The position numbers and the translations under genes are program-made. The notes under the pieces were generated by a model, which was not told the origin of the DNA, did not search any database, and worked only from the letters and a program-made list of their open reading frames with translations. Of a DNA stretch of 64,000 nucleotides, positions 41,491 to 58,934 are shown one piece after another (position 1 is the stretch's first letter; every line of letters begins with the position of its first letter). Origin of the DNA: an uncultured virus (IMG/VR IMGVR_UViG_3300027828_000003) (lineage: Duplodnaviria; Heunggongvirae; Uroviricota; Caudoviricetes); the IMG/VR virus record IMGVR_UViG_3300027828_000003; one strand, given 5' to 3'.

Positions 41491-41503
41491 AGAAAAATCC
41501 CAA

Positions 41504-41734
41504 CTATCGAATGCTCAAGGCGTTGAAGACGGTGCAACGAATGCTGCTCGACAGGTTGAAGGAACCTCTGTTGTCGTCGATCTCAGTGACAATCTGGTTC
41601 ACGGACTTCTTCCGCAGTGCAGACAACTTGCACAGGCCGTCCCAAAACACTTCCTCGAGCGAAACACTGGTCCGATGACCGTTGACGATCACCGAACGTT
41701 TTTTGATCAGGCAAGGATTACTGACTTGCGACAT
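41504..41734 (-). CDS. Ribbon-helix-helix (RHH_4) DNA-binding protein
   Basis: KRSV.V.GHRTSVSLE..FW..L...NLSS.IR. Confidence 0.9.
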   Translation of the reverse strand: MSQVSNPCLIKKRSVIVNGHRTSVSLEEVFWDGLCKLSALRKKSVNQIVTEIDDNRGSFNLSSSIRCTVFNALSIR

Positions 41735-42130
41735 TTTTGTGTCCTCCCGTTCCGGCGCCGTCCAAATGCTCTTTCAACGCAACAAGTGTCTCTTCCTGCC
41801 GCTTGAGCTTTGCGAGCCGATCTTCAGCGAGCCGACGATCGAACCGAACGTCGTTCAGGAGCAGTTCGATCCCGACCCGAAGTTGATGGATGCTTTTCCC
41901 CATTGGGCCGGCCTAACTGGTGTATTCGATGAACTTGAACTCACCGCCGCCGAAACTTTCCATCCGCCCGCCCAAGGGACCGGTGAAGCGTTCCTCGATT
42001 TCGTGCCGCTGCACACCTTCCTGATAGCGTCCGCTGATTTCCCTGCCGGCGCGTGTGTTGATGTCGCGGATGACCTGGATCCTCTGGTCAATACTGTCTT
42101 GCATGTCTCTACTCCCTACCATGATATGAA

Positions 42131-42208
42131 AGAATATCATCTGATTTATGAGTGTCAATCATATTTATGTGTACTTCTCATTGACTTTGCCAGCCAGACA
42201 ATCATAAT
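42131..42208. promoter_or_regulatory. Divergent sigma70-like promoters with two operator-like palindromes
   Basis: Minus TTGACA-N16-TATTCT; plus TTGACT-N16-CATAAT; ATGAGTGTCAATCAT (42148) and ATGTGTACTTCTCAT (42167). Confidence 0.6.
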
Positions 42209-42344
42209 CGGCAAATCGGCACGCACACCGATTCCTACCCAAACCACTTCCCAAGGCCGGGCCTGAAATATGGTCCGGCCAATTTTTCTTGACCCTATGA
42301 ACGCCGTCGATAATGATTTTTCCTCATTATCCATGAGGGAACGA

Positions 42345-42923
42345 ATGTCTGAAAAACTTAAAATCGCCACCGTTGGCATCGGCAGCATAATCGCAAACCC
42401 CAAGAATGCTCGATCTCATCCGGATGAGCAGATTCAACACTTGGTCGCGAGCATCAAACGGTTCGGTCAACCGCGTCCGATCCTCGTCCGTAAAGAAAAC
42501 AAGATGATTGTCGGTGGTCACGGCATCTTTACGGCCTGTAAACTTGCCGGCCTCGAGCATGTCTCCGCCATTCTATGGGACGTCGATCAAGCGACGGCGG
42601 ATGCCTACATGCTCGCCGACAACCGGCTCGGCGATCTGTCGACCGATGACGAAGATCGAGTGGCCGCCCTTCTCCGCGAAATCAACGCAGACGACTATTT
42701 CGCGATCGGTTTCGACGACACTGAGGTGTCTCGGCTTCTGGATGAACTGGAAGAAGACGCGATCGAAGTCGAGGAACTTTCCGCAGACTTGGTTTCGGAT
42801 AGCTTCTGGATCACCATCAGAGGGCCGCTCGCGAACCAAGCCGCGGCACTCGACCGATTGAAGGCCGCGATGGTGGACCTCGAAGATGTCGACGTGGAGC
42901 TCGGCACGACGCCGGGAATGTAG
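42345..42923 (+). CDS. ParB/Srx N-terminal domain protein
   Basis: NPKNARSH..QI..L..SI..FG..PI, I.GHG, Y..ADNR. Confidence 0.85.
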   Translation: MSEKLKIATVGIGSIIANPKNARSHPDEQIQHLVASIKRFGQPRPILVRKENKMIVGGHGIFTACKLAGLEHVSAILWDVDQATADAYMLADNRLGDLSTDDEDRVAALLREINADDYFAIGFDDTEVSRLLDELEEDAIEVEELSADLVSDSFWITIRGPLANQAAALDRLKAAMVDLEDVDVELGTTPGM

Positions 42924-42925
42924 GG

Positions 42926-43558
42926 ATGAAGAAACTGAACCGATTTTCGTCGACTCTGAATAAGAATAAGAAAAAGGCCAACAACCACCCTGCAGCCGAG
43001 AAGGCCAAGGCACAGATCCGCCAGAACGTCCTGGACGTTATCGGCGCCGACGATGCTTCCGTCTTCGACGCTTTCGCCGGCGAGGGCGTCATGCATACCG
43101 CGGTCTGGCATGCCGCAAAGAGCTATATCGGCTGCGATCTGGTCTGGTACCGAGACACGCGAACCGCCTTCGTCTGCGACAACACCCGCGTCTTGCGAGC
43201 GGTCGACCTTCAGCAGTTCAACATCTTCGATTTCGATGCTTACGGGTCGCCATGGGAACAGGCGTTCATCCTCGCTTCGAGGCGTGAGGTCAAACCGGGC
43301 GAACGCATCGGTCTGATTCTCACAGAGGGAAGCGGACTCAATCTGAAGCTGGGGGGATTGCCGATCGCCCTCCGCAAGCTGGCTGGCGTGCGGAAGACCT
43401 TCGCCGGGGGGAACCGGCATCATGACGACCTGATCGACATGGCATTGGCCGGCGTGTGCCGGCGCATGAACGTCAAGATCGTGAAGCGGTGGCGGGCGGT
43501 CCGCAAAGGCGGCGCTGCCATGCGCTATATCGGCGTTGTGTTGGAAGGAATCTCCTGA
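42926..43558 (+). CDS. SAM-dependent methyltransferase-like protein
   Basis: VFDAFAGEG motif I; FDFDAYGSPW. Confidence 0.55.
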   Translation: MKKLNRFSSTLNKNKKKANNHPAAEKAKAQIRQNVLDVIGADDASVFDAFAGEGVMHTAVWHAAKSYIGCDLVWYRDTRTAFVCDNTRVLRAVDLQQFNIFDFDAYGSPWEQAFILASRREVKPGERIGLILTEGSGLNLKLGGLPIALRKLAGVRKTFAGGNRHHDDLIDMALAGVCRRMNVKIVKRWRAVRKGGAAMRYIGVVLEGIS

Positions 43559-43624
43559 GCCGCAGGCGCCGCCCAGATCGAAACCTGGACGGCTCCCCTG
43601 CAACGGAGATCTGACTTGGCGGCT

Positions 43625-43683
43625 GCCTCATCAGGCCACGGGTACCACCCGTGACGACCAGCCCGAAAAGGGCTGGTTTCGGC
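43625..43683 (-). ncRNA. Hammerhead ribozyme, type II; predicted cleavage 3' of C at 43656
   Basis: GCC-GAAA-CCAGCCC UUUUC GGGCUGG-UC-GUCACGGG UGGUA CCCGUGGC-CUGAUGA-GGC. Confidence 0.8.
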
Positions 43684-43702
43684 TTGTTCCGGCCGATGCC
43701 GG

Positions 43703-43885
43703 TCAGTCCTGGCTCATCCTGGCCTTGAATGACCGGATGGTCATGGTTTCGACTTCACCTTTCGGGTCCGTCGGATAGAACTCACCGTGGATGCAGTCTT
43801 TCGCGAAAGCCACGGCTTCCGAACGTGTACAGGGTTTGTCCGTCTTGAGGACGATGCAGATTTCATGGCGTCTGCTTTTGGCCAT
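43703..43885 (-). CDS. Hypothetical protein
   Basis: AAGGAG RBS; last gene of leftward operon. Confidence 0.5.
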   Translation of the reverse strand: MAKSRRHEICIVLKTDKPCTRSEAVAFAKDCIHGEFYPTDPKGEVETMTIRSFKARMSQD

Positions 43886-44129
43886 GGGTTTCTCCTTTCT
43901 CGCTGAAGAGCGGTAAATCCAGACCCTGTCTCTCCGAAGGCAGCGGCCGCTCATCCGGACGGCAGATATTCCAGGGACATTCCTTGAAGTGCCCTTCGTC
44001 GTAAGCCTGCAAAATCCGGGGTTTGTGGTAGGTGCATTCGTGGCCGGACGGCCGCCGGCAGTGACTACCGACTTTCGCTTTGCACTCCGAACACGGGACT
44101 TCCAACGCGGGATGGCGCCGCCAAGTCAT
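43863..44129 (-). CDS. Zn-finger domain protein
   Basis: AL.V.C..C.A..G..C.RPSG...H..R. Confidence 0.55.
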   Translation of the reverse strand: MTWRRHPALEVPCSECKAKVGSHCRRPSGHECTYHKPRILQAYDEGHFKECPWNICRPDERPLPSERQGLDLPLFSEKGETHGQKQTP

Positions 44130-44155
44130 GCCGCACCCTTTGTTGCACCCGACCG

Positions 44156-44575
44156 TCATAACAGACCGATCCGGTTGTCGGGCCCGGTCCATTCCATCAA
44201 GGCAACGCCCTTCAGGAATTCATGGTCCACGATGTCCGACTCCAACACCGACTTGGCGCGGTGCAGAGCCTGATGGTCGATATCGCCGCCGCGGCGGGCG
44301 ACAATCTCGATCATCATTCCATCGTAGTCGTCGGAGAACCGGAACACGCCCGGCCAACAGTCGAAGTGGATGTCCGGCGTTGCGCCGGCGCCGCCCCAGT
44401 TCTCCCAATCTCCATCGGGATTCTTGATGAGGTCCGGATAGCCGTACATGCCATGCGGCGCCAACCGGTCCTTGACCCAGAGCCATGCCGCATGTTGCCG
44501 TTCACGCAGCTTCGCCTCGATCAAATCCGGATGGGATTGGCTCCCGACTTCCGTATCAAACAGACTTTGCTGCAT
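44156..44575 (-). CDS. Hypothetical protein
   Basis: GGAGG RBS before ATG. Confidence 0.5.
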   Translation of the reverse strand: MQQSLFDTEVGSQSHPDLIEAKLRERQHAAWLWVKDRLAPHGMYGYPDLIKNPDGDWENWGGAGATPDIHFDCWPGVFRFSDDYDGMMIEIVARRGGDIDHQALHRAKSVLESDIVDHEFLKGVALMEWTGPDNRIGLL

Positions 44576-44891: not shown

Positions 44892-44917
44892 TTCTACCTC
44901 CATGTTGCAGTGTGGTT

Positions 44918-44979
44918 TCCCACTACCGACCCCGCAGGGCCGGTTTCGACCAGTCACCAACTGGTCTCGTCAGGCAGGA
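44918..44979 (-). ncRNA. Hammerhead ribozyme, type I (GUA triplet, cleavage after 44924)
   Basis: UCCUGC-CUGACGA-GACCAG UUGGUGA CUGGUC-GAAA-CCGGCCC UGCG GGGUCGG-UA-GUGGGA. Confidence 0.9.
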
Positions 44980-47048
44980 TTTCTTGATTGGCTTACCGAT
45001 AGCGCGGTGGCGATCGGCTGCACCCAGATCGGTTCGTTCGACAGCGAAAAGGTCTGTCCGCTCCATGCCATCAGCAAGGTGCGTCCCATGGTCGAGGCGA
45101 TGGCCTGCGCTGCGGGCGGCGGGACCGCGTTTCCGATCCGTTCCCGCCATGCCGAGTCCGAAAGCCCCTCGAGCTCCATATGCTCTTCGGGACAAACGAG
45201 CCCTTGTAAAGCGGCCAACTCCAAGGTCGTGAACGGGCGATGCCACGTATTGTCGAGGGAGTGGATCACCACCACCAACCGGTCTTCCGGCGCCGGCAGT
45301 TGACAAATCGGGTCGATATTCGGATCCGGTTGCACACGCGGGTCCGCAACCGACCATCGCCCGTTGTCATGCTGAGCCGCCGCCGAGACCGCGCCGGCCG
45401 AGTCCCACCACGGGACAACACCGTAGTGCCCGCCCGATTGGTAGTGTTCCCGGCCGTCCTTGGTGAATTCAGGCCGGGGATCGGCAACGGAGAAGGCCCC
45501 GTTCCCGGTTCCGCTGGCCCCGATGACGGTGCCTGCCTGTCCATCCCAGTCGACGACACGATACTTGCCTTTCCCCTGGTAGGACGAATCCGGCCGCGGA
45601 TCGGCCACGCTCAACGCACCGGATGCAACCTGTTGGGCGCCAGTGATGGTGTAGGCCGGGTCTCCCCAGTCCGTGACCTTCAACTTGGCGCTCGATGCAC
45701 CTGGATGCCAATTGTTGTAGCGAGGATCGGCCACCGAGAACTTTCCGTTCGTCGGGAAGCTTTCCCCCGCGACAGTACCGGCCTGCTCGTTCCAGTCCGT
45801 GACGCCCATATGGCCATTGAAATGACCGCCACGGGGATCGGCCACGGACATTGCGGCGCCACCGACATGCTTCGCGCCGGTGACGACATGGGCGCTCCGG
45901 TCCCATCGCACGACACGATAGAACCCGTTGTGCCGGTTCTTCGATGGAGGCATGCGCGGATCGGCCACCGAATGGGGCCCACCACCGACCAACATCTTGC
46001 CGGTGACGACACCCGTCGATTGATCCCATTTCCGAACGCCATGCTGAACCGATCGAGGATGACCGTCGATGCGCGGGTCCGCCACGCTGTAACAGCCGTT
46101 CGTCGGCGTGCTGCGACCCTTCACCGTCACCGCCGGGCTGCCCCATGGAGTGACCCCCATGACGCCCTGGTGATAGCTTTGGTCGGGCATGATCCCGAAA
46201 TCCTTGAGAAAGCCGTCTTCAACATTCAGACGTTTCAAGGATCGCCAATCGCTACCGGCCTCGATGAAGGCCAGCCGAACCCAGGTTTTCCATTGAAGCG
46301 ACGGGATGCGATGCATGGGCCCCGCGGCCGCGACATCGCCGGGCAACGGGAAGCGTTCCAAGACCTCCCCTACCCCTTTCAAAGGCCTATGCATAGGCTC
46401 ATAGAGGAAGGGCGGAATCTTCTCCGCGTGCCGTGCCACGAGCAGGAAACGCTTCCGGCTCTGGGCCAAGCCGCCGAGATGGCCGCAATCGTGCGTCGTC
46501 TCCGCGACCAGATAGCCGTAATGCGCCAGGAGCGCGACAATCCGGTCGAGAAGCTTCCGACCGCGGTTCATGATGCGGGGAACGTTCTCAAACACGATCA
46601 GTTCCGGCGGATCATCCTGCCAGGCCTCGAGCATGAGCCAGACCCCGCGAAGGGTAAGGCTGTTCAACGCCTGATACTTGTCGCCCTTGCTGGCCGCTTC
46701 GGGCAACAAGCCCGAGAAGCCTTTGCAGGGAGCGGACAGGAACACGATATGCGGACGTTCGCCGCCCGCCGCGCGCTGGATGTCTGCCGCCGTGGCTTCG
46801 GTCCACCCATAAGGCGGCTCCTTGCCATGAAACGCCATGTACTGCTGGCGATTGAACAGGTCCAAGACCGTTCCTTTCACGCCGGCCAGCTGATCGAAAT
46901 CAGCAATGGCGCCTTGGTCGACATCGATTCCACCGATGCATTTGAACTTCGCGTTCAGGCTACCAACGCGGGCTTCGCCTTTGTTGAAGCCTTTCGCGCC
47001 GCCACCCAATCCGCAGAATAGGTGGAAGTGCCTAATCTCTACATCCAT
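44970..47048 (-). CDS. DNA (cytosine-5) methyltransferase with internal repeats
   Basis: HLFCGLGG, APCKGFS, ENV, Q.R.R, IGNAVP; seven SVADPR repeats; start moved to ATG after shared RBS. Confidence 0.9.
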   Translation of the reverse strand: MDVEIRHFHLFCGLGGGAKGFNKGEARVGSLNAKFKCIGGIDVDQGAIADFDQLAGVKGTVLDLFNRQQYMAFHGKEPPYGWTEATAADIQRAAGGERPHIVFLSAPCKGFSGLLPEAASKGDKYQALNSLTLRGVWLMLEAWQDDPPELIVFENVPRIMNRGRKLLDRIVALLAHYGYLVAETTHDCGHLGGLAQSRKRFLLVARHAEKIPPFLYEPMHRPLKGVGEVLERFPLPGDVAAAGPMHRIPSLQWKTWVRLAFIEAGSDWRSLKRLNVEDGFLKDFGIMPDQSYHQGVMGVTPWGSPAVTVKGRSTPTNGCYSVADPRIDGHPRSVQHGVRKWDQSTGVVTGKMLVGGGPHSVADPRMPPSKNRHNGFYRVVRWDRSAHVVTGAKHVGGAAMSVADPRGGHFNGHMGVTDWNEQAGTVAGESFPTNGKFSVADPRYNNWHPGASSAKLKVTDWGDPAYTITGAQQVASGALSVADPRPDSSYQGKGKYRVVDWDGQAGTVIGASGTGNGAFSVADPRPEFTKDGREHYQSGGHYGVVPWWDSAGAVSAAAQHDNGRWSVADPRVQPDPNIDPICQLPAPEDRLVVVIHSLDNTWHRPFTTLELAALQGLVCPEEHMELEGLSDSAWRERIGNAVPPPAAQAIASTMGRTLLMAWSGQTFSLSNEPIWVQPIATALSVSQSRNPA

Positions 47049-47081
47049 AACAGTTTCTCCTTGTTGCAGTTTGCGGGACAT

Positions 47082-47143
47082 CCCGCGACCGGGCGCCGAA
47101 GCACCCGGTTTCGGCTGTGTGTCAAACAGCCTCATCAGGCGGG
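47082..47143 (-). ncRNA. Hammerhead ribozyme, type I (GUC, cleavage after 47087)
   Basis: CCCGC-CUGAUGA-GGCUGU UUGACAC ACAGCC-GAAA-CCGGGUGC UUCG GCGCCCGG-UC-GCGGG. Confidence 0.92.
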
Positions 47144-47183
47144 TAATGAGTTTTACTCATTCTCACAGGTAAAAAAACACCGA

Positions 47184-48659
47184 TCATCTGTATGGAAAGG
47201 ATTTGTCCTTGTTCAGGCAGACGATCACCGTGTTGACGTTCGTGCCAACAGGCAGAAACGAGCCCGGCGGGAGATCATCCATCCGGGCCTTGTATTCATC
47301 CAGCAGCTTCCGGAAGGCCACGCTCTTCTTCGTCATCCTGAATTCCGTTCCGGCGCTCATGATCGAGATCAGATAGCCGTTCGGATTCAGGAATTTCATC
47401 GCGTGCAAGACGTGGTCAATGTCCCGTTCGAGGTCGAACGGTGGATTCATCACGACCCGGTCGTAGATCGGCTTTGGCTCGACATCCAGGAAATCACCGC
47501 AAGTCACCTTGCGGAACTTCCCGGATGCATCGAGTTCGGCCGCCAAATCTGTCTGGATTTCGACACAATCGACAACACCGCCATTCTCGACCGCTCTATA
47601 GGCCAAGCTGCCGTTACCGGCGGACGGTTCTAGAACGAGCAAAGGTCTTCGGTCTTCAGTAGGACGCCAAATCTTCGCTTGCCTCATGACGATCTCCGCG
47701 GCGTCCTCCGGCGTCGGGTAGAAGCCCCACCCTTTCGCCGGCGTGCGCTTGACCTTGAAGAGGCTGTCTTCCTCTTCCGCGGCCTTGCGGTACTTTTCGC
47801 TGCGCTCTTCGGGAATCACGTCGCCGTAGTATTCCGCCAAGAGCTTGTTGACCCGTTCAACCAGGTCGTCGCGCTGGAACCAGACGTGACAGTTTCCGTT
47901 CTTGAAAATACGGATCTTGAAATACTCTGAATCGACTTCGGTTTGACGGGGTGAAAGAGAATGACCGTCATTCCTTCGCGCTGTCTCTATGGCGTTTAGG
48001 AGTTGGCTATAAGCCGGGTTGTCCCGTTCGTCGTCGAGAACACGAAAAGTTCGCTCGATGTCGATCAGCGTGTCACGCATGTTGCTGTAATGGTTCCAAG
48101 TGCCCCACTCATCGAAACACCGGTCCAGGATCACACGGTTGCCGATTTTCCAACCGTCGTGGCTTCTGAACCGTCGATCCAGCTTGGAAAAGCAAGTGGC
48201 GATTCCGCGCTTGAAGATCGTGTCACGGTCCAGGAACAGCTGCTCTATGGTGGCAATGACGTTTTCTTCAGTGATGTCGGGTGGATCATCCACCAACTGC
48301 CTCCGAAGATCGTCCTTCGCCGTTTTGTCCATCAGCTGCTCAAGAGCCGTGATTTCGATGATCCTGGACCAGCAGTCGGAGTCGACCGCGCGCCGAACCG
48401 TCGTTTCAAAGAATTCACGCGACGGAACATTGAAGTCCGTCAGGTGGCATTTCTGAAGATGTTTCGACGAACCGTAATTGAAGCCGGTCGTGCCGGCCGC
48501 CATACGGGTTTTGGTCTTGTGCGCTTCATCGATCGCCTGCCGAGCCGATTCCAAGGCGTCATAGGCGCAACCGTAGAGACGGAGCGCCTCGTCCCTGTAC
48601 CGGACCAGTTCGGCGACAGTGATGCGAAGTGCTGGAAGTTGACCGTCAGGCATGACCAT
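47184..48659 (-). CDS. DUF4942 domain + amino-methyltransferase
   Basis: YF..R.FKNGN.H..F.R.DLV...N; FYPTP, LEPSAG.G, MNPPF. Confidence 0.85.
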   Translation of the reverse strand: MVMPDGQLPALRITVAELVRYRDEALRLYGCAYDALESARQAIDEAHKTKTRMAAGTTGFNYGSSKHLQKCHLTDFNVPSREFFETTVRRAVDSDCWSRIIEITALEQLMDKTAKDDLRRQLVDDPPDITEENVIATIEQLFLDRDTIFKRGIATCFSKLDRRFRSHDGWKIGNRVILDRCFDEWGTWNHYSNMRDTLIDIERTFRVLDDERDNPAYSQLLNAIETARRNDGHSLSPRQTEVDSEYFKIRIFKNGNCHVWFQRDDLVERVNKLLAEYYGDVIPEERSEKYRKAAEEEDSLFKVKRTPAKGWGFYPTPEDAAEIVMRQAKIWRPTEDRRPLLVLEPSAGNGSLAYRAVENGGVVDCVEIQTDLAAELDASGKFRKVTCGDFLDVEPKPIYDRVVMNPPFDLERDIDHVLHAMKFLNPNGYLISIMSAGTEFRMTKKSVAFRKLLDEYKARMDDLPPGSFLPVGTNVNTVIVCLNKDKSFPYR

Positions 48660-48727
48660 GGCCCCCTTCCCGCTTTTTCAAGTGTTTCATCGTAGTTCTC
48701 CATGTTGCAGTTGTGGGGTAGTGACTT

Positions 48728-48785
48728 CCCACGACCGCCCCAAAAGGGCGGTTTCGGCCCGTGTCACGGGGCCTCGTCAGGTGGG
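48728..48785 (-). ncRNA. Hammerhead ribozyme, type I (GUC, cleavage after 48733)
   Basis: CCCAC-CUGACGA-GGCCC CGUGACAC GGGCC-GAAA-CCGCCC UUUUG GGGCGG-UC-GUGGG. Confidence 0.92.
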
Positions 48786-49454
48786 TTTGAGATCGAACGG
48801 TGGCGGCGTTTGGGAGATTTTGTGAATCCAGCCGCCGGGTTGCCAGTCCGGATCGTCTTTTGGCGCTTCCGGCATGATCAACTCCGCTTCCTCGCCGGAA
48901 TGCCTCTTGTACCCGAGCGGGACAGTTCCGTCTTTTCGGTCAAGCTGGATCGTCTTCACGACCTGATCGACCAGACCTGTCTTCTCGGCAAATGATCCGA
49001 AGAAATTCGCATAGGAGCGATAACCGGTCGGCGATATGAAAGGACGGTCGAAGTCGACCGCATGGGCGCTGAACCCCAAACCGAACAAACCCCGATAGTC
49101 GATCAACACACGGCATTCGAGGACATTCACAATGAACCGTCCCGGCTGACCGAACATTGGCACTTCGCCGCCACTGGATTGAATGGCGTCGATAATGCGA
49201 CCGTAGGCACCTTCCTTCGTGGCGATTGCGAAAATGGTGCCGTCATTCATGCGAACAGCCAGGTTTCGAACCTGTTCCAAGATCGCCACACCGGTCTCGC
49301 CGTCCCCATTGAGGACCGCTTGATCGTAACGGACAAGTTCGTCCCAGATCGCGGCGATCAGGTCGTCCTCATCCGTCGGTAGAGCGTCCAAGGCAGCGCG
49401 TTGCGCCCGTTCTGCGTCAGTGGGAAGGTCCATTCCCAAAGCAAGCTGTGTCAT
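48777..49454 (-). CDS. KlcB-like protein
   Basis: GEVPMFGQ.G.F..., HAVDFDRPFIS.TGYRS resembles IncP KlcB (recognised by eye). Confidence 0.6.
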   Translation of the reverse strand: MTQLALGMDLPTDAERAQRAALDALPTDEDDLIAAIWDELVRYDQAVLNGDGETGVAILEQVRNLAVRMNDGTIFAIATKEGAYGRIIDAIQSSGGEVPMFGQPGRFIVNVLECRVLIDYRGLFGLGFSAHAVDFDRPFISPTGYRSYANFFGSFAEKTGLVDQVVKTIQLDRKDGTVPLGYKRHSGEEAELIMPEAPKDDPDWQPGGWIHKISQTPPPFDLKPT

Positions 49455-49488
49455 ATTGGTCTCCGTGTTGCAGTTACGGTATCGGCTA

Positions 49489-49558
49489 CCGCGACGGCCA
49501 ACTTAACGCATGACGTTAAGTTGACCGTTTCGGCCCCGCCACGGGCCTCGTCAGGCGG
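49489..49558 (-). ncRNA. Hammerhead ribozyme, type I (GUC, cleavage after 49493)
   Basis: CCGC-CUGACGA-GGCCC GUGGCG GGGCC-GAAA-long stem III-UC-GCGG. Confidence 0.92.
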
Positions 49559-50369
49559 ATCCATGGTGTTGCGGAACCCGAAGCGGATTCGGGTATCCTT
49601 CCGGCAGGAACGGCTGAAGGTCTTTCTTGATGTAGTGCCGTGCCCCAAGCTCCTGCAGGAGCTCGATCATCCGGTGGGTATAGTCTTCCCAGTCGGTCGT
49701 TTTCGTCATGGACAGGTAGTTCACCCGCCCGACCTTGTAGAGATCGACGAATTCATGGGTTTCGCGAACGATTTCCATGCTGCTTTCGACATCCAGGGTC
49801 GGCTCGAGGCTGACCCAGGTGAAGATGCCGGCCGCATGAAAGGCCTTGATCGCTTCAATCCGATCTGCCGGCGCCGCGGCGTCGCGTTCCCATTTCCGGG
49901 AAAATCCTTCGTCGAGGCTGGTCAGTGTCGAGGCAAAAGCATCACGATCGCGTCGAAACAGGTCGATATCCCGCAACGCCCTGGTTCCACCCTTGGTCAA
50001 GGTGCAGAAGCCCAGACCATGATCCCGCAGGACGATCAGGGTTTCCCGGGTCAGCGAATTGTCGCCCGGGTGATACGGATCGGTCGTGAACGAGAGCATG
50101 ACCTGGCCCGTCAATCCGGCCGCCCTGTACTTCTTGGCGTCCTTGACGAGGTTGGCCATGTAGTTCTTGCGCGGCACCGCGCCGGCATCGAACTCTTTCC
50201 GGTCCTGCTTGGTGACGCGCGGCACATAGCAATAGGCGCATTTGTGCCCGCAGCCGCGATATGGGTTTGCGGCCAGTGGCGCATATTCTCCGGCCTGACC
50301 TTTCGGCGCGTAGATATGCGTGCATCCCTTCAGCGAAAGGCCATCGGGATTGATTGTTGGTGTATGCAT
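49551..50369 (-). CDS. Radical SAM protein (SPL-like)
   Basis: NPYRGCGHKCAYCY CxxxCxxC; TDPY; LTK; WVSLEP. Confidence 0.85.
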   Translation of the reverse strand: MHTPTINPDGLSLKGCTHIYAPKGQAGEYAPLAANPYRGCGHKCAYCYVPRVTKQDRKEFDAGAVPRKNYMANLVKDAKKYRAAGLTGQVMLSFTTDPYHPGDNSLTRETLIVLRDHGLGFCTLTKGGTRALRDIDLFRRDRDAFASTLTSLDEGFSRKWERDAAAPADRIEAIKAFHAAGIFTWVSLEPTLDVESSMEIVRETHEFVDLYKVGRVNYLSMTKTTDWEDYTHRMIELLQELGARHYIKKDLQPFLPEGYPNPLRVPQHHGSA

Positions 50370-50390
50370 TCAAATTCTCCATGTTGCACG

Positions 50391-50419
50391 ATAGTATGAG
50401 TTTAACTCATTATTGCGAA
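50391..50419 (-). promoter_or_regulatory. Putative promoter with operator ATGAGTTTAACTCAT (50396-50410)
   Basis: TTCGCA-N17-TACTAT on minus strand. Confidence 0.5.
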
Positions 50420-50637
50420 GATGCCAAAACATATGTAACTGCCTGCATCTTCACGATTTTCTTGGATAAACGATATGTCTACTTATAGCCCTATTGAATA
50501 CCTATTTAGAGAGCCTTCCTATTGACTATTCGGGCGACTTCCCCAATTAAGAAACATCCATGTTGCAGTGGATTTCACCGACCTTGATCGGTGCATCTAC
50601 ACCCGAGCCGGATCACTCCGCGCTCGGGTGTTGTGCA

Positions 50638-50943
50638 TCAGGACATCAGGTTGTCGAAATAGGCCTTCGCCGACTCGTAGTCGCGATATTGCCGACCGTG
50701 CTGCGCGCCACCCATTTCGAAGTGGACCGCATAATGGCCGTTCGTCCATCGCATCATCGAGCCGGCAGCATGCCAACCGGCAGTCACGGCCTTCAACTGA
50801 ACCTCTCGGCCGCCGAGCGCCTTTCTGGTTTCCAAAACGGTGATCTCCGGCCGCGGTTCAAGCCTGCTATTCGGCTCTTCAAGCAAGCACTTCCCTGCCG
50901 GGATGTACTTATCTCGAAAATGGACATTCGGGATTTCAAGCAT
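50638..50943 (-). CDS. Hypothetical protein
   Basis: Starts after shared RBS motif. Confidence 0.6.
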   Translation of the reverse strand: MLEIPNVHFRDKYIPAGKCLLEEPNSRLEPRPEITVLETRKALGGREVQLKAVTAGWHAAGSMMRWTNGHYAVHFEMGGAQHGRQYRDYESAKAYFDNLMS

Positions 50944-50969
50944 ATCGGTTCTCCATGTTGCAGTTGCGG

Positions 50970-51035
50970 TTTCCCACGACCGACCCCGCAGGGCCGGTTT
51001 CGGCCAGTCACCAACTGGCCTCGTCAGGCAGGAAA
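50970..51035 (-). ncRNA. Hammerhead ribozyme, type I (GUC, cleavage after 50978)
   Basis: UUUCCUGC-CUGACGA-GGCCAG UUGGUGA CUGGCC-GAAA-CCGGCCC UGCG GGGUCGG-UC-GUGGGAAA. Confidence 0.92.
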
Positions 51036-51452
51036 GTAGTCACAGGCGATCTGCTCGTCGGTGATCTCGAGTTCGAAGGTCGAACCCGGTTTGAGCTTTT
51101 CGGGCAGTTCGTCCAAATGGAAGACTTCGACGAAATCGTCGCCGCCGACCGCATCCCGGCTCCGTTCCCAGAACCCTGGATCATCAGGCGAATATCCGAG
51201 CGCGTAGACGACCTTCTTCTTGCCCGGCCGGTCCGGATCGAGCATGGCCGGGAAGCCATTCGATACCAAGTAGATGCCGTCGTCTTTGACGATCAACAAA
51301 CCCGGCTGTCCCAGTTTTTCCTCGCCGTCCTGGGGATCAATACTCCCGGTCAGGTCGAGACGTTCGCCGAAAGTCAGGCTATGTTCGTTCGAAGCGCGTG
51401 CATGCACCATCAACAAATTGACCGAGTCGGCAGGGAAACGAAGTTTCGTCAT
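51024..51452 (-). CDS. DUF3085-like protein
   Basis: L.VKDDGIYL.SNG, VYA.G..P, GGDDFVE. Confidence 0.7.
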   Translation of the reverse strand: MTKLRFPADSVNLLMVHARASNEHSLTFGERLDLTGSIDPQDGEEKLGQPGLLIVKDDGIYLVSNGFPAMLDPDRPGKKKVVYALGYSPDDPGFWERSRDAVGGDDFVEVFHLDELPEKLKPGSTFELEITDEQIACDYFPA

Positions 51453-51958
51453 TTCCTGTCCTCCTCGATCGACTGTTGGACGCCCGGCAGACGATAGATG
51501 TTCTCCGGATCCGTGTCCGACGCGTTGAAGTAGTCGATCTGCGCCTTGACCTCTTTGATGTCATCAGCCTCGTCCTCCTGCCACCGATAGCTATACCGGC
51601 GTTCCGTATCACCCTTCTCGGGCGGCACGAGGTAGACCGAAAATCCACCATACTTGAAGGCTTCGACCTCGCCGGCCGGCCGCCGCATGCTCGACATCAC
51701 GATCTCCGCGGCGCGTTTTTGACCGATCAGGAGAATGTCCCGGTTCAGTTCGTCCGCGTGCTGCGCCATCTCGTCGTAGCTATCGCCGTTGCACCAGAAC
51801 ACCGGTACAGGGTGGTAACCTGGCTCGTTCTCGACAGCGATACCGAGGCCGAACCCTTCAGATTTGGCAACCACTGGGACAAACGCCCAGTTCTTGCCGT
51901 CGACGACCGTAAAAAGGTCACATTCGGCCATGCCTTCCGTTGTCAATTGTTTCAGCAT
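51449..51958 (-). CDS. Hypothetical protein
   Basis: Starts after shared RBS motif; GIAVENEPGY. Confidence 0.6.
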   Translation of the reverse strand: MLKQLTTEGMAECDLFTVVDGKNWAFVPVVAKSEGFGLGIAVENEPGYHPVPVFWCNGDSYDEMAQHADELNRDILLIGQKRAAEIVMSSMRRPAGEVEAFKYGGFSVYLVPPEKGDTERRYSYRWQEDEADDIKEVKAQIDYFNASDTDPENIYRLPGVQQSIEEDRK

Positions 51959-51993
51959 TTCAGCTTCTCCATGTTGCAGTTACGGTAATGCAT

Positions 51994-52064
51994 ACCGCGA
52001 CCATCACCCCCGGCTGGCGCCGGGGGCTAGGTTTCGCCGGGATTGCACCGGCTCGTCAGGCGGC
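51994..52064 (-). ncRNA. Hammerhead ribozyme, type I (GUC, cleavage after 51999)
   Basis: GCCGC-CUGACGA-GCCGG UGCAAUC CCGGC-GAAA-CC..GCCCCCGGC GCCA GCCGGGGGU..GG-UC-GCGGU. Confidence 0.9.
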
Positions 52065-52469
52065 TTCTGCTTCTTCGGGCTGATGACCCTGCATGATGAT
52101 GTTCTGCAGCCATTGGGCCAGGAAATCGTTCTGGCCCTTCTTTTCCTTCGGATAGACCTTGCCCGGTTCGGGGTAGACCTCCCGGAAGGAGCTCAGGTAG
52201 TCCTGCTGAATGTGAAGGGCTTCCGCCATCTTCAGCTTCGGGACGACCGCGACCAGCATTTCGGGATCCGCCATGAGATCGCCGTTTTGCAGCCCATAGT
52301 GCGCCAGGGAGACCTTGACCCGGTCCTTCTCGCGCTCGACGACCTCGACGCACAGATCCATGAATCCGGACGCCTTCAACTTGGTGTGGAAGCCGACCTC
52401 ACGGTCCTCGATCCCCGGAATGATTTTCGTCAAACGGGCGTAGATCGTCTTGTAGATTTTGTGTTCCAT
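52056..52469 (-). CDS. DUF1249/DUF6908-like protein
   Basis: GFMDL.VE, SLAHY..QNGDLMADPEM, FL..WL.NI..QG. Confidence 0.7.
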   Translation of the reverse strand: MEHKIYKTIYARLTKIIPGIEDREVGFHTKLKASGFMDLCVEVVEREKDRVKVSLAHYGLQNGDLMADPEMLVAVVPKLKMAEALHIQQDYLSSFREVYPEPGKVYPKEKKGQNDFLAQWLQNIIMQGHQPEEAEAA

Positions 52470-52505
52470 CTCGAAATTCTCCATGTTGCAGTTACGGTAT
52501 TGGCT

Positions 52506-52562
52506 ACCGCGACCGGTCCCGAAGAACCGGTTTCGGCCCCGCCACGGGCCTCGTCAGGCGGC
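52506..52562 (-). ncRNA. Hammerhead ribozyme, type I (GUC, cleavage after 52511)
   Basis: GCCGC-CUGACGA-GGCCC GUGGCG GGGCC-GAAA-CCGGUUC UUCG GGACCGG-UC-GCGGU. Confidence 0.93.
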
Positions 52563-53027
52563 GTTCAATTCGCGATTGACGCGCGATCTGAAATCAATAA
52601 GAGCGGGCGCATATGCCTCGTGATAGTGCCCATGGTACCGGCCACCATCCTCGAGGTTCTGCCACCATGTCGCGTAGGGATGGCGCACGTTGTCGATGCA
52701 GCAGAGCAGAAAACGACCGGGGGCCGTCATTTGACCGTCTGGTGACGGGTGTTCCGCTACAATGAAGCCGGTCGACCCGGCGCCCTTGACCCCCTCGATA
52801 ATCGAGCCAGGGAACACGTATTTCGTCCGCTCCTGGATTTGAGCTTCGGAAACGCTGCCGACCTTTTCGAAGTCAATGCCCTTGTGGATGCACCACAGTT
52901 CGGCGATTTCCTCGACTTGGGTCTGATTTTCGCCCTCGATGTGCTTATGCAGCCAATTCGTGAAGCCGACCCCTGGCCCGCCGTGAACGGTCTCGGCCAG
53001 CTTGATCGACGCAAAATAGATCGTCAT
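52554..53027 (-). CDS. Hypothetical protein
   Basis: Starts after shared RBS; HPYATW....G...GHY. Confidence 0.6.
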   Translation of the reverse strand: MTIYFASIKLAETVHGGPGVGFTNWLHKHIEGENQTQVEEIAELWCIHKGIDFEKVGSVSEAQIQERTKYVFPGSIIEGVKGAGSTGFIVAEHPSPDGQMTAPGRFLLCCIDNVRHPYATWWQNLEDGGRYHGHYHEAYAPALIDFRSRVNRELNAA

Positions 53028-53058
53028 TAGATTCTCCCATGTTGCAGTTTGCGGACAT

Positions 53059-53127
53059 ACCGCGACCAGCCGTCGCACAACTTGCGACAACTGGTTTCGC
53101 CGGGATTGCACCGGCTCATCAGGCGGC
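53059..53127 (-). ncRNA. Hammerhead ribozyme, type I (GUC, cleavage after 53064)
   Basis: GCCGC-CUGAUGA-GCCGG UGCAAUC CCGGC-GAAA-CCAGUUGUCGCA AGUUG UGCGACGGCUGG-UC-GCGGU. Confidence 0.92.
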
Positions 53128-53601: not shown

Positions 53602-53646
53602 CGTGGACTCCGTGTTGCAGATGGCGAAATTGCCTAACGAATTCAG

Positions 53647-53707: not shown

Positions 53708-54943
53708 TTAAGCGGCGATTGCTTCCGCCTGTTCGGCCGCCTTGGCTGCCTTACGGCCCCGATTGTTCCGGCCTTTGGTGGCCTTGGGGGCCTTCGTGGT
53801 CTCGGCCTTGGCAGCTGCCGGCGCCGTTTCGGGCTCCGGCTTGGCTTCCGGTTCCGCCTTGGGCTCGGGTTGCGGTTCCTGTTCCGGTTCCGCCGGTTCC
53901 GTGGTTTCTGGTTCGGACGTTTCCGGCTCCGTGGTTTCGGGTTCCGTTTCCGTCGTTTCCTCGCCAAGTTCCATCCCGAGCGGCTGCCCGTCGATCGCCT
54001 CGTCGCCACCCTGTTCGGGCGCGGGCAAGGCTTTCTCGCTCGTGCGAGCCATCAAGGCTTCAATCCGTTCCCGGTATTCGTCGGCCTTCGCGGAAAGCTT
54101 GGCCTTCTCAAGCGGGTCCGTCGTTTCGTCCGCCCATGCCTGATTGCGCGTTTGATGCGCCTTCAGAGCGGCGAGCGTCCGATTGACGGCCGGACTGATA
54201 AGACGTGCCGTCTCCGGCGCGATGCTTTGCTTGACCCTGACGGGCATCAGAATAAGCATCGCCCCCGGATATTCCGGAAACGTCGCCATGGCCGCTTCCG
54301 TCGCGGAATGGGCGTACAGGCTCACGTTTCCGTCCTTCCCGCCCAAGAGCTTCGCGATATCGCCAACGGATTTGAGATATTTTCCGTTGAACGACACCGG
54401 TTCGAAGTCCTTAGCGCGGGCGTCGTCTTTGTCCGTCACCCCGCCGGTCAGACTTTCCATGATCATTTGGTAATCAGGAAACGTGCCGGACACGATCGGG
54501 CACTTGATGCGCGCGTCTTGCTTGGCGTCCGTGAGGTACGCGCTCGACGCGTTCACCGCGTTCTCGATCTTGATCAGCTCATCCTCGCCGAGCTTCTGCA
54601 AAAGCTTCAGCTTGGGAGCGAGATTTTCGCTGTGCAGGATCGCGCCTTGTTCCAGCCATGCCGGGGCTTGCCCGACAAGCGGCTGAGTGGCGATGAACAA
54701 ACGGTGACCATCCGTGGCCACGGCCCGGATCCTGTCCTCGACGACATGGAAAAAGATTCCGTTGAGATAGTAGCGGGTCTCTTCCGTGCTGGCGCACGCC
54801 AAAGCGGCATGCATCAGGGTCGCCGGAAACAGGATCGATTCGGAGGCTCCGACCTCGACGGCCTGGGCGTTGTCGTCCTGGCGCGCGTTGTTCTCGGCTT
54901 CCGTGGTCTGTTCCGTGGTGGTGACGTGGTTTTGGTCAGTCAT
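53708..54943 (-). CDS. DNA polymerase III beta-clamp-like protein with acidic/Pro-rich tail
   Basis: EETRYYLNGI, AVATDGHRL, GTFPDY, FNGKYL, LMPVR. Confidence 0.75.
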   Translation of the reverse strand: MTDQNHVTTTEQTTEAENNARQDDNAQAVEVGASESILFPATLMHAALACASTEETRYYLNGIFFHVVEDRIRAVATDGHRLFIATQPLVGQAPAWLEQGAILHSENLAPKLKLLQKLGEDELIKIENAVNASSAYLTDAKQDARIKCPIVSGTFPDYQMIMESLTGGVTDKDDARAKDFEPVSFNGKYLKSVGDIAKLLGGKDGNVSLYAHSATEAAMATFPEYPGAMLILMPVRVKQSIAPETARLISPAVNRTLAALKAHQTRNQAWADETTDPLEKAKLSAKADEYRERIEALMARTSEKALPAPEQGGDEAIDGQPLGMELGEETTETEPETTEPETSEPETTEPAEPEQEPQPEPKAEPEAKPEPETAPAAAKAETTKAPKATKGRNNRGRKAAKAAEQAEAIAA

Positions 54944-54965
54944 TGGATTTTCTCCGTGTTGCAGT

Positions 54966-55335
54966 GTGACCGGCGGCGGATGCGCTGCCGGGGCCTAGTT
55001 TGAAAATGGCCTAAGCGGGCGCACCCTCGCGGGCGCGCCCAATGGAGAATCTGCAATGTGGAGAATGTCGTTATTCACAATGTCCGAGAACGGGACGAAA
55101 GCGGGCGGCGGCTGCCTGTCGCGTTGTGGAATGCCGGATAAACGGACTGGATACCGCCGCACCGGTCACTGCCTTCCCAGCCGATCCCGTAGGACCGTGC
55201 CACGTTCCGAAAGCCTTGACGCGAAGGCCTAGCCCAAAGGGCCAGAGCCGATCCCGATTCACGATGTCCAATAACCAGACCCGAGGGGCCTGACGGCGCT
55301 CTGACCGCCGCGCACGGCGCAGGCATTGCCCTAAC
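54966..55335 (-). ncRNA. Long structured 5' leader/putative sRNA containing antisense copy of the shared RBS motif
   Basis: About 370 nt with no credible ORF; several hairpins; AUUCUCCACAUUGCAG at 55066-55051. Confidence 0.55.
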
Positions 55336-55373: not shown

Positions 55374-55530
55374 GGCTTTTTATCGCAAACTCATATGGTT
55401 ATGGTTGGGCATTAATGAGCCGGTTTAAGGGCCGTTGGTGGCTGTAGGGGTATGTGAGGGGTAGACGTAGGGGTATGAGGTTGCGCGAATGTGGGGGCGT
55501 TAGAGAGGCTGTAGACCTGGCTTTGTATGA

Positions 55531-58930: not shown

Positions 58931-58934
58931 TCCA

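Follow-up and report, generated by a model that had tools for sequence, protein, structure and literature searches.

A terminal type II hammerhead in a phage early operon, and an antisense copy of the operon's ribosome-site tag in its predicted cleavage product

The DNA considered here is a stretch of 64,000 nucleotides (the window) from an uncultured virus of the Caudoviricetes (IMG/VR record IMGVR_UViG_3300027828_000003). On its minus strand lies an early operon of the phage that carries nine ribozymes. Eight of these are type I hammerheads, of which two were visible at first; the ninth, at the end of the operon, is a type II hammerhead. The operon also carries 11 copies of a ribosome-site tag, CUGCAAC-N(1-3)-GGAG, whose consensus over the 11 is, in DNA letters, aACTGCAACA.GGAGaa. 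The positions of these and of the other features are collected in Table 1.

The last ORF of the operon would encode 60 amino acids. Its start at 43885 was chosen for the AGGAGA upstream of it, and a Pfam search with the 60-aa product gave no family match. Facing it from the other strand is a gene for a 210-aa protein that contains a SAM-motif-like FAGEG and belongs to a conserved family with a conserved C-terminal VLEG[IL]. At the far end of the operon, the leader contains the only other antisense-type copy of the tag on the minus-strand RNA, and the leader fold is predicted to sequester a ribosome site in cis (z -5.3). An 83-aa ORF in this leader, at 55075-55326, was rejected as a gene; its GC by codon position is 0.62/0.69/0.63. 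Three sequencing runs carry the stretch, all of them DNA, with no variant in 42800-44436.

Table 1. Features of the ribozyme-bearing operon and of the module at its 3' end, in window positions.
Feature	Position	Strand	Remarks
Tag copy CTGCAACAGGAGAT of first small ORF	56138-56149	-	best match to the 13-mer, 1-nt bulge
Leader anti-tag CUCCACAUUGCAG (looser antisense copy, CTCCACATTGCAG)	55063-55051	-	GC hairpin next
Tag copy of beta-clamp-like gene	54952-54964	-	predicted cis pairing with leader anti-tag
Tag copy	53608-53620	-	without preceding hammerhead
Type I hammerhead 1	53058-53127 (span as analysed)	-	stop codon of upstream ORF inside CUGAUGA
Tag copy	53034-53047	-	spacer 3 nt
Type I hammerhead 2	52505-52562	-	core CUGACGA
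Tag copy	52479-52491	-	
Probable type I hammerhead 3	51993-52064	-	interrupted stem III; missed by automatic finder, read by eye
Tag copy	51967-51979	-	
Type I hammerhead 4	50972-51032	-	
Tag copy	50951-50963	-	
Type I hammerhead 5	49487-49559	-	
Tag copy	49461-49473	-	
Type I hammerhead 6	48727-48785	-	
Tag copy	48698-48710	-	ahead of DUF4942 methylase gene
Type I hammerhead 7	47081-47143	-	sole type I without stop-codon overlap
Tag copy CTGCAACAAGGAG	47057-47069	-	ahead of C5 methylase gene
Type I hammerhead 8	44918-44978	-	cleavage site GUA
Tag copy CTGCAACATGGAG	44898-44910	-	follows type I hammerhead
Last operon ORF, 60 aa	43703-43885	-	UGA 43705-43703; GC by codon position 0.48/0.46/0.69
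Type II hammerhead ribozyme	43617-43684	-	RF02276; stems read from sequence, Rfam alignment and fold
Stem II strands	GCC 43683-43681 and GGC 43627-43625	-	
Core GAAA	43680-43677	-	
Stem III hairpin	43677-43657	-	
Predicted self-cleavage site GUC/G	43655-43656	-	position of C17 in Rfam alignment
Stem I hairpin	43655-43635	-	
Core CUGAUGA	43634-43628	-	
Ribozyme tail AGCCGCCA	43624-43617	-	
Linker AGUCAG	43611-43616	-	between ribozyme tail and anti-tag
Anti-tag 13-mer AUCUCCGUUGCAG	43598-43610	-	exact complement of CUGCAAC plus GGAGAU
Inner hairpin	43568-43593	-	11 bp, UUCG loop, 2 G.U pairs
3' arm CCUGCGGC-UCA-GGAGAU	43551-43567	-	predicted to pair with the 13-mer, masking it
Convergent gene, 210 aa	42926-43558	+	GC by codon position 0.60/0.42/0.76; 516 relatives at E<=1e-3

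The terminal ribozyme matches Rfam family RF02276 over the full length of the model (1-66 of 66), scoring 52.6 bits (E 5.8e-8) where the gathering score is 37, and it is the sole hammerhead in the window at or above a gathering score. A search of 43480-43720 at a permissive threshold returned the same family (E 2.2e-10), with no other family beside it. The conserved core, CUGAUGA ... GAAA, is present, and the cleavage triplet GUC at 43658-43656 has the form NUH. Cleavage is predicted to give a 5' product that stops at C43656 and a 3' product that starts at G43655.

The initial annotation of this DNA had described the last ribozyme as having a different topology, with stem II open, as overlapping no stop codon, and as having no gene after it. 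This description holds in each part. In the Rfam alignment and in the fold, stems I and III are closed by loops and stem II (GCC/GGC) is open, as in type II hammerheads. The ribozyme begins 18 nt past the stop codon of the last operon ORF, and the only long minus-strand ORF that follows (42695-43603) is the shadow of the plus-strand gene. UGGU in loop I could pair with GCCA at 43620-43617, a pairing that was read by eye from the alignment and carries no score. In the fold predicted for the 3' product, the linker contributes GUCAG to a pairing with the core strand CUGAU.

Six nucleotides beyond the ribozyme tail begins the 13-mer that the initial annotation had seen as complementary to the common motif. 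It lies where that annotation put it, and the window has no second exact complement of the tag (the pattern match proper, CTGCAAC-N(0-3)-GGAG, spans 43598-43608). With every one of the 11 tags, it can form 7 plus 5 or 6 Watson-Crick pairs around a bulge of 1-3 nt, with duplex energies from -17.6 to -21.5 kcal/mol. The bulge, given earlier as 2 nt, has that size in nine of the 11 tags; of the other two, one has a bulge of 1 nt and the other a bulge of 3 nt.

The pattern CTGCAAC-N(0-3)-GGAG has 11 minus-strand copies in the window, each ahead of a start codon, and one antisense copy. Dinucleotide shuffles of the whole window contain, on both strands together, a mean of 0.17 matches, and none of 100 shuffles reaches 12. 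Moreover, the antisense copy falls inside the 144-nt gap directly after the last ribozyme, where, by scaling from the shuffles of the window, about 2e-4 exact tag complements would be expected. Other phage loci, about 2.3 Mb in all, gave 2 distinct, chance-like matches to the same motif.

Energies alone do not single out the site. When the operon region is scanned for duplex energy only, the anti-tag site comes third (-18.7), with an intragenic site ahead of it at -20.0, and a control using the reversed tag reaches -19.6. The energy-only scan has no outlier, which leaves the exact-pattern test as the only significant one. Local alignment of the element with all 11 tag regions found no similarity beyond the motif. 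Surveys of about 14 other hammerhead arrays for anti-leader elements, by 9-mers and by duplex energy, found no general pattern; the duplex-energy survey is powerless in GC-rich DNA.

The initial annotation had placed the 13-mer ahead of a UUCG hairpin. The hairpin folds as proposed, with 11 bp; the 13-mer, however, is predicted to be paired with 43567-43551. A 60-nt hairpin (43610-43551) results, in which the 13-mer is the 5' arm and the UUCG hairpin is enclosed. The 3' arm of this larger hairpin reaches into the convergent gene, covering its final two codons and its stop, and the GGAGAU of the arm derives from Ile-Ser codons within the conserved C-terminus. The likeness that had been drawn to the leader is borne out in so far as an anti-tag and then a hairpin occur in both; the leader fold, however, sequesters a ribosome site in cis.

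In its predicted folding, this large hairpin is specific to the minus-strand RNA. Its energy is -37.9 kcal/mol there, against -26.8 kcal/mol on the plus strand. Its z is -5.9, against -1.2 on the plus strand, where 23 of 200 shuffles fold equally well. All four non-Watson-Crick pairs of its stem are G.U on the minus-strand RNA.

Unmasking the 13-mer is predicted to take 12.96 kcal/mol, and the window offers no accessible seed of the kind looked for in a base-pairing sRNA; nor is a single-stranded toehold visible in its predicted fold. Opening the target tags costs 1.2-6.8 kcal/mol. Because opening the 13-mer costs some 13 kcal/mol, only weak net binding to the tags is predicted, at about -6 to +0.4 kcal/mol when the duplex and the opening of both partners are counted, and cofolding gains only 0 to -5.5 kcal/mol for 10 of the 11 targets. 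An RNA that ended at 43568 would still retain a 5-bp local mask, worth 6.6 kcal/mol.

Where would such an RNA end? The tail after the hairpin reads UUCCUUCC. There is no T-run beside the hairpin on either strand, and a scan of 41500-44200 for intrinsic terminators listed 3 sites, with none at 43540-43620, where a U-run is lacking. Neither a U-tract nor a terminator-like site thus marks a 3' end of the trailer. As nothing at 43568 resembles a terminator, the stable 3' product is expected to measure at least 105 nt, and the length of roughly 90 nt proposed in the initial annotation does not stand.

A distant relative, a phage genome of 114,801 nt (G001), has the same end module, its parts following in the order of terminal type II hammerhead, antisense to its own tag, and hairpin. 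Its tag, CCATCTGCAA, has 10 copies on the reverse strand and one on the forward strand, at 103449-103458; the reversed-pattern control gives 0/0. The single antisense copy in the whole genome, against 10 sense copies, is of the phage's own tag, CCAUCUGCAA, and it lies 8 nt past an RF02276-type match (103467-103543, 41.8 bits) that marks the terminal hammerhead. The consensus of 13 tags there is cCATCTGCAA..G.ga, and the anti-tag is the complement of CCATCTGCAA.

The two modules can be compared part by part. The stems of the ribozyme and the stem of the inner hairpin differ. What is identical is UCAG, the partner of the invariant core; GUUGCAG, the partner of the invariant tag; and GGUUUCG, which forms the loop region of the hairpin in both. 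In each phage the anti-tag spans the part of the tag that is invariant in that phage, the window's anti-tag being the complement of CTGCAAC plus GGAGAT. In the two phages, then, the seed GUUGCAG is conserved and its extensions match the tag at hand. An RNAalifold analysis of the two terminal elements was discarded; MAFFT had shifted GUUGCAG by two columns.

Predicted energetics are favourable in G001, with an opening cost of 6.5-6.8 kcal/mol and duplexes of -17.4 to -25.6 kcal/mol. Its anti-tag is less masked, the 5' half of the seed being free in one predicted fold. A partner in cis exists there also, as the GG of AUGG sits in the base of the hairpin; the lineage-specific extensions of the anti-tag thus have cis partners in both phages. 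The comparison involves one relative, whose module is homologous to that of the window, and common descent could account for the core that both have. A third phage with the same family of tags (G403) has no terminal ribozyme, and its lone antisense copy lies inside a real gene.

The observation made in the initial annotation, a terminal type II hammerhead followed by an antisense copy of the tag, is confirmed; the interpretation placed on it is, overall, partly supported. We read the element, tentatively and with somewhat less than even confidence, as a conserved anti-ribosome-site RNA that is released by the terminal ribozyme. It would then be the 3' end module of an early operon punctuated by ribozymes. 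The ribozyme would sever a trailer from the last mRNA, and the 5'-OH of this trailer, together with the stable hairpins at both of its ends, might let it outlive the mRNAs. Its anti-tag would pair with the tag and the Shine-Dalgarno region of the processed mRNAs, lowering their translation. The outcome would be a feedback, presumably negative, or a timer, in either case dependent on transcription that reaches the end of the operon.

In the window, the anti-tag has a predicted partner in cis, a tag-like stretch 30 nt downstream (with two G.U pairs), so that unmasking or strand exchange would be required; the window's version may accordingly be weak or attenuated. That of G001 is only half masked. 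It also counts against the released-RNA reading that each transcript would yield one trailer and carries 11 tags.

A more ambitious form of the released-RNA reading is possible but leans toward the unlikely. Here, a long-lived master anti-tag RNA, released by the hammerhead, would recognise the invariant leader common to all cistrons of the operon (and, in G001, to 13 genes genome-wide). It would silence their translation as it accumulates, and so act as an autonomous, RNA-only timer for leaving early gene expression. On this view, the window's tag-like lock would serve either as a built-in attenuator or as a switch that depends on a trigger.

A simpler account, which we consider unlikely, assigns the terminal hammerhead to the mRNA that precedes it. 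The ribozyme would give the last mRNA a protected 3' end (the stem III hairpin and a 2',3'-cyclic phosphate), as the other cistrons have, and would detach it from read-through RNA that is antisense to the convergent genes (ParB-like and methylase-like). On the trailer, the long hairpin would be a structural cap or a barrier to exonucleases, and its likeness to the tag would have no function in trans. The locking of the anti-tag in the 60-nt hairpin fits this account, as does the lack of a terminator, from which read-through would be expected, and the lack of an outlier in the energy scan. Precedents exist as well. By a crude gene test, 11 of 121 distinct hammerheads in the loci examined have no gene after them, a low frequency, and another array (L268/L302) likewise ends with a hammerhead that strong hairpins follow. 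The account leaves unexplained, however, an exact tag complement in so short a gap, the invariance of GUUGCAG where other stems co-vary, and the match of the G001 version to the tag flavour of G001 itself.

It is improbable that the element is a relic or a recombination scar, that is, the remnant of a 5' UTR that sequestered the tag of a lost downstream or plus-strand gene, with no present function, the conserved tag having served as a point of recombination between modules. A gene does seem to be the normal downstream partner, as a ribosome site and an ORF follow within 70 nt in 17 of the 19 distinct type II hammerheads that share this tail. The anti-tag, hairpin and tag-like stretch also repeat the architecture of the leader, and the plus strand reads hairpin, CUGCAAC, GGAGAU, 5 nt, UUG and a 12-codon ORF. 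Yet the GGAGAU arm belongs to the conserved C-terminus of the convergent gene and is no leftover ribosome site, and the four wobble pairs all favour the minus-strand RNA. Nothing beyond the motif resembles any of the 11 tag regions; a perfect motif between unrelated flanks argues for selection. The element is also kept in G001, where the neighbouring protein is 62% identical.

The anti-tag might instead act in cis as part of a 3' UTR and, until the hammerhead has cut, fold back on a tag elsewhere in the transcript, such as that of the last cistron block, from 44910. Cleavage would then relieve repression in cis, so that the ribozyme switches translation on and releases no repressor. This is decidedly improbable. 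Anti-tag and tag do share one transcript, 1.3 kb apart, and the leader uses a predicted anti-tag pairing in cis. However, the masking of the 13-mer applies here too, the local partner at 43551-43567 is far closer than any tag, and hammerheads whose core is complete and whose tail forms a pseudoknot generally cleave rapidly (PMC3088659, in its accessible part). Least probable of all is a hairpin that serves the plus-strand gene 42926-43558 as a terminator, as the initial annotation had allowed, or as a 3' stabiliser, or that is a bidirectional terminator: its base does overlap the end of that gene, but neither strand offers a T-run or a listed terminator site, the plus-strand fold is no better than its shuffles, and in G001 the element still adjoins the hammerhead although another ORF parts it from the homologous gene.

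Several known RNAs resemble the proposed one in part. The c4 antisense RNA of phages P1 and P7 is processed from the transcript of its targets, and its short pairings cover a ribosome-binding site; it lies upstream of its target and is excised by host RNase P. The trailer would be similar as a small antisense RNA, here a predicted one, from a target-bearing transcript, with a short pairing over the ribosome site. It would differ in its position at the 3' end, in its release by its own ribozyme, and in its 11 identical targets. In the icaR mRNA of Staphylococcus aureus, a pyrimidine-rich stretch of the 3' UTR is complementary to the mRNA's own ribosome-binding site. Here also, a 3' UTR stretch is complementary to a ribosome-binding site on the same transcript; the icaR pairing, however, acts within a single mRNA that has no ribozyme, whereas cleavage here would part the stretch from its mRNA.

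DicF, from the dicBF operon of the Qin prophage (PMC10448788, in its accessible part), and the sRNAs that RNase E generates from 3' UTRs are regulatory RNAs cut out of the last part of an operon's mRNA, their supply being tied to transcription of the operon, and in this the trailer would be like them. They are cut by host RNases, however, have a U-tailed terminator as their 3' end, and for the most part have targets in other operons. The trailer would be processed autocatalytically, has no U-tail, and has the operon's own cistrons as predicted targets.

Hammerheads arranged in clusters have been described in prophages, where they flank single genes or short blocks, anti-restriction genes included; such arrays at other loci cleave in vitro and in E. 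coli, and the purpose of bacterial and phage hammerheads was left open (Perreault et al., 2011, PMC3088659, in its accessible part). The operon here is like those arrays in having several hammerheads in one phage operon. The type II topology includes a pseudoknot from loop I to the tail, and here a candidate pairing of that kind can be drawn. The operon is unlike those arrays in that its terminal ribozyme is gene-less and yields a product that carries the complement of the operon's common tag, whereas the accessible part of that paper describes no antisense element in a cleavage product. A literature search for a hammerhead-released anti-ribosome-site RNA found no such description.

Bacterial and phage hammerheads have, of course, already been catalogued in large numbers. 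If the released-RNA reading is true, one phage hammerhead gains a concrete job, in that its cut would create the 5' end with which a regulatory RNA begins. Operons diced by ribozymes would then have identical ribosome-site leaders because these are a common address for the RNA released, and a host-independent route to regulatory RNAs would be added. If that reading fails, the locus remains a clean nine-ribozyme operon with a predicted cis lock on a ribosome site in its leader.

Relatives of the locus were sought in several collections. A DNA search of a plasmid collection with 43400-44300 found no match, the leader pattern CCGCAAACTGCAAC..GGAGA had 0 matches in viral contigs, and no match came from those of the 401 genomes of the class of G002 that were searched. 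The 153-aa ORF at 44156-44617 matches only itself among 5.8 billion proteins. Among 80 viral loci in a DUF4942 alignment, only 2 to 4 have a hammerhead and none has the tag. The C5 methylase, a promiscuous gene, was rejected as a search anchor; it gave one locus in genome contigs, without hammerheads, and one in viral contigs, and on plasmids, as in phages such as PBC5, its homologues stand in a different context. A type II hammerhead at another locus (L370) proved ordinary, lying upstream of a gene.

The stem II pattern of the type I ribozymes occurs at more than 128 loci, and being common in phages, it is usable only as a comparison set. A scan of metagenomes for a ribozyme end plus a tag gave 8 loci; this contig accounts for three, and the other 5 match by chance within coding DNA. 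A 14-mer from the ribozyme tail occurs at no fewer than 118 loci in viral contigs, 13 of the 118 listed being hammerhead-like; among the loci listed, one fragment is 100% identical to the window phage. That fragment and G001 alone were recovered by a viral scan for the tail, N20-50 and GGTTTCG.

The window is phage DNA, annotated with tail genes (55-12740), an integrase gene (16301-17485) and genes for SSB, Cro-like and Dam proteins. An 80,225-nt metagenome contig includes the window's sequence at 100% identity, and three marine-sediment DNA runs contain it. The products of the ribozyme-bearing operon are a beta-clamp-like protein, DUF6908/DUF1249 and DUF3085 proteins, a radical SAM protein, a DUF4942 methylase, a 692-aa C5 cytosine methylase and those of several orphan ORFs.

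The type II hammerhead at 43617-43684 (-) scores 52.6 bits against a gathering score of 37, and no other hammerhead in the window passes an Rfam gathering threshold. A descriptor script demanding CUGAnGA, GAAA, a UH site and three stems located seven type I hammerheads on this strand; an eighth, whose stem III is interrupted, was recognised by eye. None of the eight reaches an Rfam gathering score. They have a common core, and their stem II differs by compensatory changes. The type II element is thus the ninth and last ribozyme. In seven of the eight, the UGA stop of the upstream ORF is inside the CUGAnGA core, so that a ribosome in the act of terminating would occupy the catalytic strand. The type II ribozyme begins 18 nt after the last stop codon, with its cut predicted from sequence between C43656 and G43655. 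Contigs of two DNA runs match the window over no more than ~40 nt at 43647-43686 (GAAAC plus ribozyme stem III) and then diverge from it; a similar ribozyme piece is therefore present in another genome of the same samples.

Positions of features in the window and in the relative phage G001
Feature	Position	Strand	Remark
Window: portal and Mu-F-like genes	58842-61894		annotation
Window: ribozyme-bearing operon	56150 to 43700	minus	converges on ParB-like and 210-aa genes
Window: type I hammerheads (n=8)	44918-53127	minus	spread through one operon
Window: 210-aa protein gene	42926-43558	plus	SAM-motif-like sequence; convergent to operon
Window: ParB-like protein gene	42270-42923	plus
G001: type I hammerheads	111306, 109155, 105514		in converging operon
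G001: probable internal type II	110321		script only; absent from Rfam gathering list
G001: terminal type II	103467-103543		RF02276, 41.8 bits

Each type I cleavage site is followed by a short 5' hairpin, the ribosome-site leader shared by the operon genes (the tag), (A)ACUGCAAC-N(1-3)-GGAG(A), and then a start codon. A search of the window for CTGCAAC-N(0-3)-GGAG gives 11 minus-strand copies, all in the operon, and one copy in the opposite sense (43598-43608); window shuffles lead one to expect 0.17 matches in all. The motif has two distinct, chance-like matches in ~2.3 Mb of other fetched phage loci. Thus the complementarity to the tag that the initial annotation had noted in the 13-mer at 43598-43610 (-), in the 3' product of the terminal ribozyme, is real and exact, and as a pattern it far exceeds chance expectation. 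The 13-mer can pair with the tag through 7 plus 5 or 6 base pairs, with a 2-nt bulge in nine of the 11 targets. Relaxing the pattern brings in one further antisense-type copy, CUCCACAUUGCAG, which lies in the beta-clamp-like gene's leader (55063-55051). On the plus strand, the terminal element reads hairpin, CUGCAAC, GGAGAU, 5 nt, UUG and a 12-codon ORF (43616-43654) antisense to the ribozyme, which is a complete tag module in the wrong orientation.

The stretch 55836-56215 (-) looks like a separate first unit, with a sigma-70-like promoter (TTGACA, 17 nt, TATATT), a tag, a 78-aa ORF (GC3 0.84) and a hairpin with a U-run at 55866-55836; the hairpin region has weak Rfam matches (ctRNA_p42d and suhB-like). 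Between this small ORF's terminator and the leader of the beta-clamp-like gene, ~5 tandem copies of a ~60-nt pyrimidine-rich unit (..CCCUACGGCUCUCUCUCCCUGUCCCUACACCC..) occupy 55530-55830 (-), where contig depth is 3-4x that of the flanks in two runs.

The 3' product (116 nt) is predicted to fold at -65.3 kcal/mol (z -5.9, with 0 of 200 shuffles as stable) into the stem I hairpin, a small GUCAG:CUGAU hairpin in which the core strand is paired, and a 60-nt hairpin at 43610-43551. In the last of these, AUCUCC-GUUGCAGG would pair with CCUGCGGC-UCA-GGAGAU, enclosing a UUCG hairpin. In the predicted fold of the leader at 54930-55085 (-), the anti-tag UUCUCC..UUGCAG is paired in cis with the gene's own tag, CUGCAA..GGAGAA at 54964, around three hairpins (z -5.3). 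The initial annotation had described an antisense-then-hairpin layout in both places. The two do fold alike, but the layout that they share is really anti-tag, hairpin(s), and tag or tag-like stretch. For the beta-clamp-like gene, this makes the leader a predicted cis ribosome-site lock, with no key apparent; the 83-aa ORF that ends at 55075 looks non-coding.

Folding assigns the terminal hairpin to the minus-strand RNA: there, each of the four stem pairs that are not Watson-Crick is G.U, the energy is -37.9 kcal/mol versus -26.8 kcal/mol on the plus strand, and the plus-strand fold does not stand out from shuffled sequences. A terminator scan found no terminator-like site at or near it. Its 3' arm covers the convergent gene's last two codons and stop. 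The GGAGAU arm might have been a leftover ribosome site; this is ruled out, because it is part of the C-terminus (VLEG[IL]) conserved in the family of the convergent gene, which has 516 relatives at E<=1e-3.

On predicted thermodynamics alone, the model of pairing in trans is weak in the window. Opening the 13-mer would cost 12.96 kcal/mol (a mask of 6.6 kcal/mol would remain if the RNA ended at 43568), opening the tag targets 1.2 to 6.8 kcal/mol, and the duplexes with the 11 tag regions would return -17.6 to -21.5 kcal/mol, for sums of about -6 to +0.4 kcal/mol. The predicted cofolding gain for 10 of the 11 targets is 0 to -5.5 kcal/mol. Along the operon region, a sliding scan of duplex energy did not single out the 13-mer site, which came third at -18.7; the reversed-tag control reached -19.6.

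A family alignment of the convergent 210-aa protein led to 80 viral loci, four of them with hammerheads. One of the four, L367, is part of G001, a phage record of 114,801 nt with terminal repeats, where a minus-strand operon converges on a homologue 62% identical to the window's convergent gene. After the terminal ribozyme, the parts follow in the same order as in the window: CUGAUGAGGCAGCC-UUA-UCAG-UCCU-GUUGCAG-AUGG, then a hairpin with a GGUUUCG loop region. The tag of G001 is (C)CAUCUGCAA-N(1-3)-GGAG (13 tags). Its 10-mer CCATCTGCAA occurs in 10 reverse-strand copies and one forward copy (103449-103458), the latter 8 nt past the terminal ribozyme match; the reversed pattern, as a control, gave 0/0 matches. 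Each anti-tag spans the part that does not vary between the tags of its own phage, namely CUGCAAC plus GGAGA in the window and CCAUCUGCAA in G001. From one phage to the other, the stems of the ribozyme and of the inner hairpin differ; UCAG, GUUGCAG and GGUUUCG are identical, and the closing pairs beside the inner hairpin change from GCAGG:CCUGC in the window to GCAGA:UCUGC. Opening the G001 seed is predicted to cost 6.5-6.8 kcal/mol, with duplexes of -17.4 to -25.6 kcal/mol, and energies of this kind are within the range usual for working sRNA-target pairs. Right after the G001 ribozyme tail (L367 4958-4974, -), CCUUAUCAG is a nearly perfect complement of the core strand CUGAUGAGG, which predicts a post-cleavage fold hiding the core; the window version is shorter (GUCAG:CUGAU).

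The antisense copy is exact, unique, positionally conserved and matched to each phage's leader. Such a copy is hard to account for as no more than a structural hairpin, as a terminator or as a relic in decay. It indicates a constraint that is specific to sequence, and the tag is the only partner in sight for it. The best single explanation is therefore the one proposed in the initial annotation, a released antisense RNA: the terminal ribozyme would free a stable trailer RNA, whose anti-tag would base-pair with the leader regions of the processed mRNAs from the operon and would reduce their translation. The ribozyme match, the complementarity, its uniqueness and conservation, and the predicted folds are results of the analysis, and cleavage in vivo, accumulation of the trailer, pairing and the direction of the effect are inferred. 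We hold this reading tentatively, with doubt slightly the stronger, because support comes from two modules that are homologous, the window's seed is locked in the predicted fold, and the lineage-specific extensions have cis partners too. A full-text literature search, screened at result level, found no report of a hammerhead-released anti-ribosome-site RNA. Perreault et al. (2011; PMC3088659) describe clustered hammerheads that flank prophage genes, including ardA; cleavage is shown for three arrays, and their purpose is stated there as unknown.

A third phage, G403 (locus L288), has CUGCAAUGGAG tags behind six type I hammerheads, with six reverse copies and a single forward, antisense one. 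This lies ~200 nt past the last minus-strand gene (L288 8460-8472; contig 45989-46001, +), inside a real plus-strand gene of 412 aa, ATPase/GNAT-like, and with no ribozyme near it, and is ambiguous as a parallel to the terminal module.

A type II pattern that includes the tail of the window's ribozyme has 31 matches in viral contigs, representing 19 distinct ribozymes. A ribosome site and ORF follow <=70 nt downstream in 17 of these; the exceptions are the window's ribozyme and one family with an ATG but no recognised Shine-Dalgarno. By a crude gene test on loci fetched by the type I pattern, a gene is directly downstream in 110 of 121 distinct hammerheads, and arrays with a common leader are frequent among the fetched loci. 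A ribozyme that closes an array with no gene after it is unusual but occurs elsewhere too, as in L268/L302. The array there (+) ends in a type I hammerhead, then two very strong hairpins and no gene (L268 7839-7990); the locus-best duplex with its own leaders (-22.5, control -19.0) falls within this hairpin region, in a G/C run. Locus L261, from another phage with four type I hammerheads, has 15 tandem copies of the 9-mer complement of the leader that follows its cleavage sites (AGCCAACCA); they immediately precede the array on the reverse strand (8232-8469 of the reversed locus). Finally, the unrelated contig L316 (+) has at 350-420 a hammerhead, then GUUCUCC, a GC hairpin and CACAGGAGAC, an anti-Shine-Dalgarno, hairpin, Shine-Dalgarno layout like that of the window's leader.
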